A stretch of 63,066 bases of DNA, counting the filler, from Globobulimina sp. (Eukaryota): assembly GCA_003354225.1 (NCBI GenBank). It is 17 parts of 17 records of this genome, joined end to end, with 100 filler letters (N's around TTAATTAATTAA, not from the genome) between each part and the next. Parts side by side here need not be neighbours in the genome. Positions count along the whole stretch, not along the records: positions 14,877 to 18,494 come from PIVH01002393.1; 16 more parts are not named here. One strand, given 5' to 3'. Each line of letters starts with the position of its first letter. The stretch's first letter is position 1. Made by a program: the position numbers and the translations under genes. The notes under the pieces are model-generated. The model was not told the DNA's origin, did no database searches, and saw only the letters and a program-made list of their open reading frames with translations. Shown piece after piece: positions 3,621 to 59,455 of the stretch.

Positions 3621-3720
3621 NNNNNNNNNNNNNNNNNNNNNNNNNNNNNNNNNNNNNNNNNNNNTTAATTAATTAANNNNNNNNNNNNNNNNNNNNNNNN
3701 NNNNNNNNNNNNNNNNNNNN
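3621..3720. other. Artificial contig linker (N44-TTAATTAATTAA-N44), first of 16
   Basis: Identical 100-nt linkers with stops in all frames start at 3621, 7341, 11059, 14777, 18495, 22213, 25929, 29645, 33360, 37075, 40789, 44503, 48217, 51930, 55643 and 59355. Contig lengths decrease monotonically. Confidence 0.98.
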
Positions 3721-7114: not shown

Positions 7115-8114
7115 GCACTATCTAACTAAAAGTGAAAGAAAGTTTTTTTTTAGTTTATATTTTTGAGCCTAGGTTTCCTAAATAGTTGCTAAATAGTTGC
7201 CGCTCAACATAAATCTGCTGAATGGAAGTCGACGAACCAGAGTTTGAAGAATGGTTAAAAAGTCAAAATGCAAAACCAGGATTAATTAAGAAACTCATTG
7301 AAGCAGGAATTGATTCTATGTTTGTTGTTTTTTATTTATTNNNNNNNNNNNNNNNNNNNNNNNNNNNNNNNNNNNNNNNNNNNNTTAATTAATTAANNNN
7401 NNNNNNNNNNNNNNNNNNNNNNNNNNNNNNNNNNNNNNNNTTTTGTAGGCCGGAATAAATTACTTATATGAGTTATATCACACCCAAATTCTTGGTACAT
7501 TTGTATGAATGAAATTCGATCAATGATAAACATTGCATTCCAATAAACCAACATTAATATTAAACAAAACATGAATTGAGAATCATTTCTTATTGACATC
7601 AACAATGTAAATGTTTGACAAAACTCATATTTTGCTTCATGTGTCTGGTCCACTTCTTTTGTAGATAATTGTTTATATCCCAAAATATACCAAACAAAAG
7701 AGCAAACCCCATGACAATCCATATATATAAATACACATTCGATGCCATAAACATCAATTAATTTGCCTGCCTGCACGAGCTTAAACCCCATGATAATATT
7801 CGATCGATCATCGATGGGCATGATACGTTTATTACGTTAATATGGCCAGAATACATTTTTTTCATTTTTGCTGTAGCAAACTAAATGATGTCGATAAGTT
7901 GAAAATTTAATTCGGTGAAAAACTAATCCACACACAAAAAGTCAAAAACTGTCCATTGACTAATTTGACATATTGTTCAATGTCATGGATACTGCAGCAT
8001 AAAATCAAAGGAAAGAATTAAAATTACAATCCACCAAACAACAACACGCAATTTCGCAACAAAAAAAGCACACAAAAAAAACAAAATTAAAAATAAATTG
8101 GATTTATCAGTTTT

Positions 8115-14776: not shown

Positions 14777-14902
14777 NNNNNNNNNNNNNNNNNNNNNNNN
14801 NNNNNNNNNNNNNNNNNNNNTTAATTAATTAANNNNNNNNNNNNNNNNNNNNNNNNNNNNNNNNNNNNNNNNNNNNTTTCGTAATATTAAACTAGGAATT
14901 AA

Positions 14903-17900
14903 ATGATGTCGTCGTTTCTGAGTTTCTACCATATGCATATACCAATAATATTATTATTTTTCCAACTCAGTTCCACATCAAACATCACCCGGCAAATCCC
15001 AATAGAAAACAATGGATTTGAATTAGATGTAATCCAAGCGTCTGGGTTAAGAATACCAAACAATACCTATGAGTATGGCGGCAGCATAATATCGCGTTGG
15101 ACACACTACGATCCGTTTAATATTGCCAAACTATGGACGTTTGGCATAGCTAACCCAAGCGGAGGAATGTCGTTTACGTCACCAACCGAAACTGCTACAT
15201 ATCCGCCAACAGAGGGCACACAAAGTGCATATATTGAACTAGAGACAAAACGAACGGGTGAAATTGGAATTGTTCAAATATTATCTGCCTATGTCACTAG
15301 TATCACCACGTATAAATTATATGTCCGAGTTGGTAATCCCGCATCAAACACATGGTCAGATGCATCGAAAGATTTGGGCGGATATTCTAAGGTCGATGGT
15401 TTCCCAGGATATAGAATTGATTTATTAGCTGGTAATCGGACAATGGCATCTGATGACAATACATTATATACAAATGGCGATTTGCCCGATGGTATTTGGG
15501 CAAAAAGTGTAATTACAGTCACACCCAATGTAAGCAGCCAATATATTGGACAACAATTAGCCGTACGGCTGCTTAATTTAAATGGTGACGGCGGTGTGGA
15601 AGTGTTTTTTGATGATGTTGTATTGGAAGCAATTGGACCACGAATATTGACAAATATTACTGCGATATTCTCGGATGATTATCTCTCGGTATTTGTTTAT
15701 TTTGTATTTGATTATAATAATATTCAAGTGATGATACGTGACGATGCGATGCATGAATGTGGCAATATATTTGTTGCAAAAAGTAATGTTTTATTAGGTG
15801 CGAACGCAAATTGTATGTGGAAAAACGAGAGCGACTATAAATTACAAATTGATTTAGGTTCGAATTCGATTATTAATATGAATGATGAATTGATAATATC
15901 TAAAAACGCATTTTATTATGTCTTCGCAGACATTGTTTACAATTTAACTGAGAACATTGCAGTAAATATAGCAGCCGCAAATAATCCCATTCCACCACAC
16001 ATAATCGTTGATAATTTGCCCTCCGTTATTTCCATTTGTGATGATTTAATGTTAAATGCAGCATCGACGCGTGATTTGGGTGGAAGGGAAGCAATATTTG
16101 AGTGGCAATTTGTTTCTTCAGTACCAAATAGCTCAAATTCTTATTTAATTGATGATATTCTCTCCATGTATGGCGACATTGTGGTGATTGCTGCAAATCA
16201 GATTGATAGTGATTCGGTGCTAGGTATACAGTTATCTGTTTTCACCTGGTTCAACACCACAGAAACAACAGAAATGTTTGACATTTACAAATCGGATGAG
16301 GTCCATATTACATTATCTGGGCCAAATACATACAGTGTGACAAATAATAATTATAAACATGATTACATCAATTTTAATGCGATAATATCCTCAAATACAG
16401 ATTGTATGAAAGCAAATAACATCTCAATTATGTCAGTATTCAATTGGTCGGTGAGCTCCACTTCGTTGACTGACACAGCTTTAAATCAAATAGCAACATA
16501 TCTAAATACAGCGCATTCAGATCATGTTGCTATTGATACAGATTTAATATCCCCCGGCAACGATTATATATTTAATGTCACTGCAACCAAAACATCCTCC
16601 TCCGCCTCATTGAGTTTATATTATGAATACAGTGACATTGCCTGTTCCATCAACAGCGGTGGTGGCGACACCATGTATTTAGAGTCAATCACAAAGCAAC
16701 AATTCGTACACGATTATATTTTATATTTGGACGGTTATACAATGAGCTATGATCCAAATGCGATGACTTTGGATTACAAAACACATTTAAAATGGGATTG
16801 GCAATGTATTAATGTCCCATTTAATCTGTCCTGTACTGAATTATTTGATGATAACTCGCAAGTTTACAGTAAATATATTACATTTAATAATATTACAAAT
16901 GTTTCTGATCATTATCTATTTTCGATGCGTGTTTCTGATGCTAATAATCTAAACAGAGCTGCGTGCACATCACAGTTACATTTAATTATCGATTTCATAG
17001 CAAATCAAAATATCAATGTAAAGTACTTATCTTTATCAATTTCTGTGACATCAAATATTATAAATTCAGAGGATAGATTAAGAATTATTTTGTTGTTAAT
17101 CAATGACGAAATCGAAGGAAACAATGAATATTATAATTATGAATGGGTAGAAACGAATAATTTTATCTCAAAAAGAAAGTTAAATCGACTTAATATTAAT
17201 GATGCAGCAAATGGTAATTTAATATTAGAAGCTGGTGTATTACAAAAAGGATATTTATACAAATTCAAAGTAACTGTTACAAAATGGTCAGTAAACAATG
17301 ATGGAACAGCCGTGTTAATTGGAAATGGCGCATCTCAGTCCATTGATATTTACGTGTTAAAAGCACCGACAATGTCTCAGTTCCTTGTTTATCCGCCATG
17401 TAACAATCAAAAATATTCATCATTATTGGATTTAGTCAATACAAAATATTACATTTCAGTGAGCGGAGACAGTGATTATTTGCCTTTATTTTATCATTTT
17501 TTATATTATTTTGACTCTGACCCAGCGTATGAATATTCGATGCATAATTCATTATTATTCGAACCGTTTTTATTTGATATAATTTTGCCGTTTGGTACGT
17601 TTACGTTGAAGTCAATTATCTATGATTCAAAACAGAGCTCAGTTTCACAGGAATTGCCATGTGATATTTCCATAGAAAATGTTGATCGAAATGAATGTAT
17701 TTCATTTCAAAATGATATTGTAAATAATTTTGAGTCCGTATCAAATACAAAAATATTAAATCACATCTTTCAAATGACACCAATTTATTTGAGTTATATT
17801 GGTGACTATTACAGCGATGTGGTGTGTTTAGAAACAATTTTATCCGAAATGATAGGTGTTTATACCAGCGACATATTTACAAATTATAATTTTTGTGTTA

Positions 17901-18494
17901 ATGACTGGTCATTATTATATGGCCAAATATTTACAGAATATTTGCAGATATTAATTGCATTCGATTTTGTTCCATTCATATTTAGCGAGAATATGAATGA
18001 AATAAAATCAATCATATCATTAATATTGGACCCATGCAATGCGACATTAAGCATTATACATGATATTAATTTATTGTTTTTATCGCCAAACTCAATCATT
18101 GATAAAAATGTAGTCATTTTTTATGAAACACCACAAAATGATATAACCAATCAAATAAATCAAAACATATTAAGGTACGGTATACAGCAATTGTCAATAA
18201 GTCACTCTTTCGACGGAAACGGCACGATTTAGCAACTTTTTTGTTTACAAAATCGTACCGTTTCTGTGAAAAGCACCAATATGATGACGAAAACGCTTAT
18301 GAATCTGAAATATATTTGAGATCTAGAAATGTTTTCATTATCGAGAAACAGAAACATTGTAAACGTGCTTCTCAAATACTAACAATTGCTGTTCTGATCT
18401 TAAGTGATATGAAACATTCCAACATTTTATACGAATTATCCTCGTCGTTATTAACAATTATTGACATATTAAATGGTGGCGGTGAGCACGAAGA
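14903..18494 (+). CDS. Large secreted/surface REJ (polycystin-1-like) protein with N-terminal Stig-cyclase-like beta-sandwich (3' truncated)
   Basis: Signal peptide. Residues ~31-245 resemble cyanobacterial Stig cyclases. Downstream REJ-type motifs: PSVISICDDLMLNAASTRDLGGR..FEW, LDGYTMSYDPN..WDWQC, GNLILEAGVLQKGYLYKFKVTV, PLFYHF, LPFG. Probably continues via an intron into 18241-18494. Confidence 0.8.
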
Positions 18495-59123: not shown

Positions 59124-59455
59124 AACAATTATATGGCACTAATATCACATTGGAGAAGGTCAATCATTATTTATATTTGTATACTTTAATTGTTTATTGT
59201 TTACGGTTTATTGTTCACTGTTTATGTGCACACCTATTAAATCCCCATATCCTAAATCCTCATGTCCTAAACCATCATCTCCACTTTGCACATCTCCAGA
59301 TGCAAAATTATTCAATGTCCCCATAACCAATCTATTTCCCCATAGTTTATCTTTNNNNNNNNNNNNNNNNNNNNNNNNNNNNNNNNNNNNNNNNNNNNTT
59401 AATTAATTAANNNNNNNNNNNNNNNNNNNNNNNNNNNNNNNNNNNNNNNNNNNNT

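Follow-up and report, generated by a model that had tools for sequence, protein, structure and literature searches.

A bacterial-type HpiC1-like domain joined to a REJ-type module in Globobulimina and Bolivina

The stretch of DNA analysed here, called the window, comprises 63,066 nucleotides of Globobulimina sp. (assembly GCA_003354225.1). One of its contigs, PIVH01002393.1, carries a gene in which an HpiC1-like domain (Pfam PF22825), the domain of the hapalindole-type (Stig) cyclases HpiC1 and FamC1, stands in front of a divergent REJ-type module. This is a new domain architecture made from known parts, and it recurs in Foraminifera. The domain keeps the side-chain Ca2+ ligand positions of the Stig cyclases and has Phe in place of their catalytic Asp. 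As far as sequences can tell, its bacterial origin and single capture are well supported. We consider it probable that the domain serves as a binding tip which is stabilised by Ca2+ and has no catalytic role, and that it was captured from bacteria and then passed between paralogues, by shuffling, within a foraminiferal family of receptors with a REJ-type module, a GPS motif and about seven transmembrane (TM) segments (REJ-GPS-7TM). A sequence-only reading of the window had described the gene as a cyanobacterial cyclase domain fused to a polycystin-like protein. That framing is too specific.

Results

The N-terminal domain is a member of the HpiC1-like family

The domain spans residues 31–245 of the predicted protein (14993–15636, forward strand) and was delimited by Pfam and by sequence matches to PDB entries. 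Pfam assigned residues 31–242 to PF22825 with 116.7 bits (cut-off 27, E = 1.6e-33), covering profile positions 2–174 of 174. A phmmer search against PDB gave 16 different sequences up to E = 10, thirteen of which were hapalindole or fischerindole (Stig) cyclases with E values from 3.4e-17 to 4.1e-14 and with alignments that were colinear over query residues 2–212. The other three matches were noise (E = 0.36–6.6). The window domain genuinely belongs to the HpiC1-like family. A Stig cyclase-like domain with these coordinates, motifs and colinearity had been proposed from the sequence, along with a comparison against PDB, and both searches bear the proposal out with significant matches.

The Ca2+ sites are kept and the catalytic Asp is replaced

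The accessible parts of two papers on Stig cyclases describe two Ca2+ sites. Ca1 is held by N137, D/E175 and main-chain carbonyls, and Ca2 by E39, E95 and D216 (10.1101/173674, PMC9063808); the two papers differ in the numbering of one Ca2 Glu (95 versus 98). E39 is a Ca2 ligand in FamC1, and the N137A mutant of FamC1 keeps about 2% of the activity (PMC9063808). We aligned 43 family rows (alignment A2) and checked the window codon at each of these positions, all on the forward strand. For Ca2, Glu was found at E39 (15020–15022, GAA; Glu in 43 of 43 rows), Glu at E95 (15212–15214, GAG; 34 of 43) and Asp at D216 (15611–15613, GAT; 42 of 43). For Ca1, Asn was found at N137 (15335–15337, AAT; 42 of 43), followed by Pro at position 138 (CCC), and Asp at D/E175 (15452–15454, GAT; 39 of 43). 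All five side-chain ligand positions were kept, in agreement with the putative ligands named in the sequence-only reading. The Ca1 ligands, which have been called special to Stig cyclases, were near-invariant across PF22825.

D214 is the catalytic acid of HpiC1, and the D214A mutant is inactive (10.1101/173674, accessible part). Y89 is strictly conserved and hydrogen-bonded to D214, and the Y89F mutant loses more than 90% of the activity (PMC9063808, accessible part). HpiC1 reads L-D-F-D-N at this place, the first Asp being D214 and the second D216; the window protein reads E-V-F-F-D. Phe stands at the D214 position (15605–15607, forward strand, codon TTT), which confirmed the earlier mapping of this residue. 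The column holds Asp in 32 rows, Asn in 8, Gln in 1, a gap in 1 and Phe in the window protein alone. The Glu two residues before it, a family consensus residue, was kept, as was the Tyr at the Y101 position. The phmmer alignment placed Ala opposite Y89; a Tyr follows two positions later, within a loop that has an insertion. Loops were longer in the window domain than in bacterial PF22825 proteins.

With Asp in 32 of the 43 rows, an acid at "214" is a family feature and not a cyclase hallmark. Most of these 32 rows were non-cyanobacterial surface proteins. The active site of the cyclases seems to have been built on residues that already existed in the family.

The junction is bridged in three studies and recurs in Bolivina

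The open reading frame (ORF) 14903–18232 (forward strand, 1109 aa) runs uninterrupted across the junction of the domain and the REJ-type module. The boundary at about 15636 was bridged by four contigs from runs of three studies: X1 (15531–15959, 0 differences), X2 (15060–16161, 6 differences), X6 (14971–16870) and X7 (15350–16393). The X6 and X7 copies were about 94% identical, and the X6 contig had 117 differences. The six listed X6 indels comprised 15, 3, 3 and 9 bases and a +1/−1 pair six bases apart. They are multiples of three or compensate each other, so the reading frame is conserved. In the X6 copy, which may be a paralogue, 12 of 17 differences within domain residues 34–113 changed the residue versus 3 of 14 in the REJ-type part; the comparison covers 31 of about 170 differences and hints at faster change in the domain loops.

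The G+C content of third codon positions (GC3) was 0.30 in the domain, 0.28 in the rest of the gene and 0.30–0.48 in four other genes of the window. It was 0.62–0.90 in three non-cyanobacterial bacterial homologues.

A hidden Markov model of the domain was run over the 133 relatives of the REJ-type part described below. Exactly two matched, P0063 (681 aa) and P0097 (474 aa), both Bolivina argentea entries of EukProt (Pfam PF22825, E = 1.5e-40 and 1.2e-35, respectively). We take this data set to be transcriptome-derived. P0097 has the domain directly before the REJ-type module. In P0063, a Cys-rich insert of about 170 aa (residues ~240–410) lies between the two, for which Pfam gave no match. 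The fusion that the sequence-only reading had suggested looking for in other foraminiferan data was thus found in both proteins.

The rival explanation of a bacterial contaminant assembled onto a eukaryotic REJ gene draws on the shortness of the contig (3618 bp), the highly fragmented assembly and a domain family that is otherwise bacterial. It is opposed by the single ORF across the junction, by bridging in three studies that includes a diverged copy with frame-preserving indels, by the same domain order in two Bolivina proteins, by a domain GC3 equal to that of the rest of the gene and by a nearest bacterial identity of only about 42%. Because of the bridging contigs, the recurrence in Bolivina, the matching GC3 and the frame-preserving indels, a chimera is excluded for practical purposes, and the fusion read from the window is no assembly product.

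Relatives of the REJ-type part carry a GPS motif and about seven transmembrane segments

The rest of exon 1 (15638–18174, forward strand; residues 246–1090) encodes a divergent REJ-type module, recognised by homology to relatives. An exhaustive phmmer search with residues 246–1109 (864 aa) gave 133 relatives, of which 23 reached E ≤ 1e-30; P0017 (1666 aa) ranked first, with 40% identity over about 840 aa. Ten of 20 relatives looked up were Bolivina argentea or Nonionella stella entries, and one was a starfish protein; this agrees with an origin of the gene in a foraminifer-like eukaryote. Pfam REJ was present in 17 of 19 distant relatives scanned (E = 1e-18 to 1e-70), six of which also had GPS, and the query matched at or just upstream of their REJ regions. 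A starfish REJ-GPS protein was among these distant matches. The in-frame run into REJ-type repeats, as it had been read from the sequence, holds through such relatives only and not through a direct Pfam match.

GPS was detected in 17 of 21 close relatives, about 190 aa past the end of the window protein; it was not detected in the other four, some of which may be fragments. By hydropathy, all 17 GPS-bearing relatives had 5–9 (mostly 6–7) TM segments directly behind GPS. P0017 has GPS at residues 1200–1238, followed by seven TM segments. Among 16 aligned relatives, the C, C, H and F of GPS were invariant and the Thr after H-L nearly so. A search for downstream GPS and TM domains, as proposed from the sequence, therefore succeeded in the close relatives; the window gene itself ends before that region.

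PLAT, PKD_channel and PF22825 were found in none of the 21 close relatives scanned, and none had an 11-TM layout. The lack of PLAT and PKD_channel, together with 5–9 TM segments, argues that the family is not polycystin-like, and the earlier description as such was not upheld. A family profile matched the GAIN/GPS part of solved adhesion G protein-coupled receptors (GPCRs), with E = 6.9e-13 for ADGRL3, and matched no polycystin. A profile of the TM part alone found nothing, so these matches come from the GAIN/GPS part. An adhesion-GPCR-type 7TM had been considered for the family and was dropped after the TM-only profile and Pfam gave no family. Judged from these profiles, family members combine a REJ-type module with GAIN/GPS and with about seven TM segments whose bundle is unclassified.

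Pro/Thr (PT)-rich linkers were common in the family, and at least one member (P0031) had a SAM-domain tail. The literature searched, supplements not covered, held nothing relevant describing REJ, GPS or adhesion GPCRs in Foraminifera.

An intron carries the gene beyond the contig end

An in-frame TAA (14900–14902) stands directly before the first ATG of the ORF. The start codon and a hydrophobic leader (residues 1–30; 14903–14992, forward strand) precede the domain, and this hydrophobic stretch is a putative signal peptide. The domain also starts right behind the leader in the Bolivina and bacterial relatives.

Frame 0 closes at 18232; no stop interrupts frame +2 between about 18163 and the end of the contig. 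An intron of 230 nt (GT..AG) lies at 18175–18404 on the forward strand. In a contig of run X2, 18169 is followed directly by 18400, and with the cut shifted by 5 the ends read GT..AG. Run X1 has the intron contiguously as DNA; the sequence at both intron ends was checked. As 230 mod 3 is 2, the length agrees with the open frame +2 behind the intron. Exon 2 starts at 18405 and is open to the contig end (18405–18494, forward strand). The end of exon 1 aligned with P0017 residues 923–1009 and the exon-2 peptide with residues 1010–1030, directly colinear. The last 19 ORF codons and the stop at 18230–18232 are therefore intronic, and the 3' end of the gene is cut by the contig end. Hydropathy found no TM segment within the 1109 aa.

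The domain is widespread on bacterial surface proteins

Short relatives of the domain in a large protein collection were 33–44% identical; 15 of 15 had PF22825, and one had PEP-CTERM. A scan of one genome per prokaryote species gave 89 relatives, of which 80 loci were kept. These loci span Verrucomicrobiota, Planctomycetota, Pseudomonadota, Cyanobacteriota, Myxococcota and others, and many have PEP-CTERM-like tails. A further 84 relatives on metagenome contigs were 31–45% identical, none of them closer than the genome-contig matches. The best identities were 41–42% (Verrucomicrobiota and Rubrivivax rows), as compared with 33–34% for L042 and L069, the nearest rows of Stig type. With such a spread over phyla, the label "cyanobacterial" is not supported. 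Horizontal acquisition, which had been claimed as well, fits a family that is otherwise bacterial. In the literature searched for a description of the fusion, no paper named HpiC1-like, PF22825 or HpiC1 cyclase, in line with the statement in the sequence-only reading that no description was known. The accessible part of a paper on PEP-CTERM proteins and flocs (PMC9850573) has nothing on the HpiC1-like domain.

Three verrucomicrobial ORFs of about 690–700 aa (L003, L007 and L009, 3 of 3 scanned) combine an N-terminal HpiC1-like domain with a dienelactone-hydrolase-type esterase domain, as in a hydrolase equipped with a targeting module. A search for long proteins, restricted by the length of the alignment to 1193–3405 aa, found 14 proteins of 1216–3009 aa in which the domain occurs with immunoglobulin-like, cadherin-like or RHS domains, all bacterial-type sets. 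One bacterial protein, P0150 (2119 aa), has HpiC1-like, IPT/TIG and RHS-repeat domains by precomputed Pfam, an Rhs-type protein with the module in front.

A quick IQ-TREE phylogeny of the domain was calculated from 95 rows. One clade, with a Shimodaira–Hasegawa-like approximate likelihood ratio (SH-aLRT) support of 100, united the window protein with the two Bolivina proteins and with P0002, a metagenomic protein. P0002 has a PT-rich linker as in foraminiferal relatives. At the D214 position these four have Phe (window), Gly and Ala (Bolivina) and Gln (P0002), 4 of 4 without Asp. In the quick tree, seven Verrucomicrobiota rows were sister to the clade, with an unstarred support of 93. The clade with the Westiellopsis, Nostoc and Scytonema Stig-type rows lay apart from the eukaryotic clade, across a split supported at 98. 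None of five Stig-derived columns was common to the eukaryotic clade. One of five Verrucomicrobiota-derived columns was common to it, a change from F to W (94% F elsewhere), which is a weak hint at the donor. A Verrucomicrobiota donor was considered on the strength of the first tree and then withdrawn, since the approximately unbiased (AU) test does not reject a Stig-type sister. Of the phylogeny with bacterial homologues that had been suggested, the monophyly of the eukaryotic domains was obtained; a cyanobacterial placement was not, as the quick tree put the clade elsewhere; a union with the Stig-type rows is not rejected by the AU test. We infer the direction of the transfer, and the same applies to its donor.

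Different N-terminal tips occur on foraminiferal paralogues

Other members of the REJ-type family have a Kelch propeller (P0053 and P0081), a C-type lectin (P0078) or leucine-rich repeats (LRR; P0030) as the N-terminal tip, often joined by PT-rich linkers. Cys-rich modules without an assignment were also seen among these tips. A quick tree of the REJ-type part was made from its first ~275 aa (44 rows, LG+G4). In it, the 30 foraminiferal rows formed a family of their own (support 99), apart from the 14 rows of canonical REJ proteins. The window protein grouped with P0017 and P0018, both without an HpiC1-like tip (support 94). The HpiC1-tipped Bolivina proteins lay inside another clade (support 99), among Kelch- and LRR-tipped members. 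The REJ-part tree thus implies at least two tip changes, while the HpiC1-like tips themselves form one clade. The pattern fits a once-acquired module that was shuffled among paralogues, or repeated replacement.

The rest of the window

The window consists of 17 pieces of 3612–3620 bp each, which are length-sorted unrelated contigs. They are joined by N44-TTAATTAATTAA-N44 spacers with a period of about 3716 bases (3621–3720, 7341–7440, ... 59355–59454). The contig with the fusion gene (14877–18494, 3618 bp) is set off by the paired 44-N runs around TTAATTAATTAA. As the window is a concatenation, only 14877–18494 counts as gene context, and neighbourhood across spacers is meaningless. Overall G+C in the window was about 0.26–0.41. 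Eukaryotic hallmark ORFs on other pieces encode SPT16, DNA polymerase subunit B, tubulin and a transportin tetratricopeptide repeat (TPR) protein.

No second member of the REJ-type family was found in the remaining 96 of the 97 window ORFs of at least 90 aa; their matches to the family were PT low-complexity matches and one weak match (E = 2.6e-6 over 85 aa). An ORF on another contig (42158–43993, forward strand) combines a weak PAN domain with a PT-rich stretch of low complexity and ends in a SAM domain. Its PT-rich stretch resembles the linkers of the REJ-type receptor family.

Discussion

A binding tip on a receptor is the preferred reading

The gene probably encodes the ectodomain of a large surface receptor in a foraminifer-like eukaryote. 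Its product would begin with the leader, followed by the HpiC1-like β-sandwich and a divergent REJ-type module of about 850 aa. Beyond the contig end, homology predicts GAIN/GPS with its autoproteolysis motif, then some seven TM helices and finally a cytoplasmic tail. With two Ca2+ sites kept and the catalytic Asp replaced, the domain would not perform a Cope rearrangement or cyclisation. It would fold as a Ca2+-stiffened β-sandwich resembling a carbohydrate-binding module (CBM), Ca2+ binding being predicted from the ligand residues. The domain would form the distal ligand-binding tip, which in paralogues is a lectin, Kelch or LRR module. Binding might be passed on through the GAIN/GPS-7TM part, if that part signals, or might serve plain adhesion. 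A glycan or bacterial matrix polymer is the most plausible candidate ligand, because the bacterial relatives are exopolysaccharide-associated surface proteins or esterase-targeting modules. The domain probably entered the foraminiferal lineage once, from bacterial PF22825 proteins that are secreted and surface-anchored, a family with PEP-CTERM proteins, esterase fusions and giant adhesins among its members. It would then have become one of several interchangeable tips on lineage-specific REJ-GPS-7TM paralogues.

Several results weigh against this reading or narrow it. The window protein had no direct Pfam REJ (PF02010) match at E ≤ 1, and REJ was above cut-off in 1 of 21 close relatives scanned (P0029, E = 1.4e-9). 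The GPS and TM part of the window gene is predicted from relatives that are at most 40% identical. For the TM part, the best PDB match of a profile built from six relatives was Frizzled-7 (E = 0.18), and Pfam found no GPCR family in 6 of 6 members. None of the listed runs is recorded as RNA, and run X2, which yielded the spliced contig, has no recorded library kind; the contig is probably a spliced transcript and the gene probably transcribed. In the domain phylogeny, a tree that unites the eukaryotic clade with the three Stig-type rows was 2.67 lnL (log-likelihood) units better than the free tree (p-AU 0.541). The foraminiferal rows have long branches and odd composition. The AU test keeps a Stig-type sister possible, so we claim no donor. 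The searches for further eukaryotic carriers were insensitive: a word-index search for fused forms of 609–1941 aa found none in 883 candidates, a false negative in that P0063 (681 aa) exists and was missed in its own length range. The role as a binding module is suggested by fold kinship and domain context.

The strongest rival is a stable, Ca2+-stiffened cap, spacer or oligomerisation unit without a ligand of its own, which we regard as unlikely. The positions that are kept are the structural ones, namely Ca2+ ligands and core motifs, and the former pocket acid varies (F, G, A, Q), suggesting relaxed constraint. The Stig cyclases are dimeric, and HpiC1 also forms Ca2+-bridged higher oligomers (10.1101/173674, accessible part). 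Such a cap is harder to reconcile with the known ligand-binding modules (C-type lectin, Kelch, LRR) that occupy the equivalent position in the family. The residue changes of the X6 copy, concentrated in the domain within the limited set of differences compared, would also fit a binding surface that diversifies.

A binding tip also has to be weighed against a secreted or adhesive matrix protein without signalling, in which the stop at 18230–18232 would be real in some isoforms or the relatives would be unrepresentative. We find this rather improbable. The genomic ORF does close at 18232 if the intron is retained, the 1109 aa hold no TM segment, and four of the 21 close relatives were without GPS, some of them perhaps as fragments. 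Against these points, X2 has the spliced form, and exon 2 is colinear with P0017, which reaches GPS and seven TM segments.

We regard an active cyclase of the Stig type, exposed at the cell surface and carrying out the Cope rearrangement and cyclisation of an indole isonitrile, as a very improbable reading of the domain. The similarity to solved Stig cyclases is full-length and colinear, both Ca2+ sites required by the enzyme and the Tyr at the Y101 position are kept, and a sister relation to Stig-type rows is compatible with the AU test. Yet the catalytic D214, whose change to Ala abolishes HpiC1 activity, is Phe here, and the Bolivina proteins and P0002 have G, A and Q; Y89, whose change to Phe costs more than 90% of the activity, is opposite Ala; 0 of 5 Stig-specific columns are found in the foraminiferal clade; and the module sits in a receptor ectodomain of 1100+ aa instead of being a free enzyme of about 200 aa. 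An assembly artefact has a negligible probability in view of the junction data.

A wider proposal goes beyond the preferred reading of a captured binding tip. Foraminifera might have built a large adhesion-receptor-like repertoire with exchangeable sensing tips independently of animals, in which one tip, the HpiC1-like module derived from bacteria, lets reticulopodia recognise bacterial matrix or prey surfaces. We put this forward as a speculation with a small chance of being right. If it is true, holozoans are not alone in linking GAIN/GPS-7TM with elaborate ectodomains, and a module derived from prey is used for sensing prey. GAIN/GPS domains occur in protists such as Tetrahymena and Dictyostelium (PMC3321182, accessible part), and a survey from 2025 assigns the linkage of GAIN to 7TM to stem holozoans (PMC12716839, accessible part). 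The foraminiferal family may bear on this placement once its TM bundle is classified.

Comparison with known systems

HpiC1, FamC1 and related Stig cyclases (PDB 5WPP, 5YVP, 5Z53 and 6A8X) belong to the same Pfam family and are colinear with the window domain over about 210 aa. Judged by sequence, they have the same flattened β-jelly-roll, and the side-chain ligand positions of both Ca2+ sites are common to them and the window domain. The window domain differs in its Phe at D214, an unaligned Y89 (the partner of D214) and the absence of all five Stig-specific columns, and most other bacterial rows are more similar to it than L042 and L069, which reach 33–34% identity. It forms one module of a eukaryotic ORF of more than 1100 aa, whereas the cyclases are free cyanobacterial enzymes of about 200–230 aa from hapalindole-type gene clusters.

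Among the bacterial PF22825 surface proteins, too, the domain is N-terminal in a protein that is secreted or surface-bound, and it comes right behind the signal peptide. The consensus motifs of the family are kept in the window domain, identities reach 41–42%, and one F-to-W column is common to it and seven Verrucomicrobiota rows. In contrast to these proteins, the window gene is eukaryotic and intron-bearing, with host-like codon use and longer loops. Its product is without the PEP-CTERM anchor, a REJ-type module following instead, and without the Asp of 32 of the 43 rows.

According to the accessible parts of the cyclase papers, HpiC1 comes closest in fold to a CBM of a Rhodothermus xylanase (PDB 2Y64), and β-sandwich CBMs have the Ca2 site as well (10.1101/173674, PMC9063808). 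The Ca2+-stabilised binding role proposed here is similar. The window domain has no sequence-level match to the xylanase CBM, and the Ca1 site, said to be absent from CBMs (PMC9063808), has near-invariant ligand residues in PF22825.

Polycystin-1, PKDREJ and sea-urchin REJ proteins have a REJ-type module followed by GPS, as do the relatives of the window protein. The 21 relatives differ from this group in having no PLAT, PKD_channel or 11-TM layout, and the REJ-type module of the window protein is below Pfam detection. Adhesion GPCRs resemble the family in their large modular ectodomain, exchangeable N-terminal tips, GAIN/GPS, H-L-T motif and about seven TM segments; however, the TM bundle of the family has no detectable 7tm_2 similarity, and the host is rhizarian.

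The window gene is a clean, cross-checked case of a bacterial extracellular module that appears to have been captured by a protist and reused through domain shuffling in a receptor family. It also shows the "hapalindole cyclase" fold to be, for the most part, a surface module of wide occurrence. Taken alone, the gene is a modest result; the larger lead is the receptor family: a large, undescribed foraminiferal REJ-GPS-7TM family with lectin, Kelch, LRR and HpiC1-like tips, whose members are candidates for the sensing of prey, substrate or symbionts.

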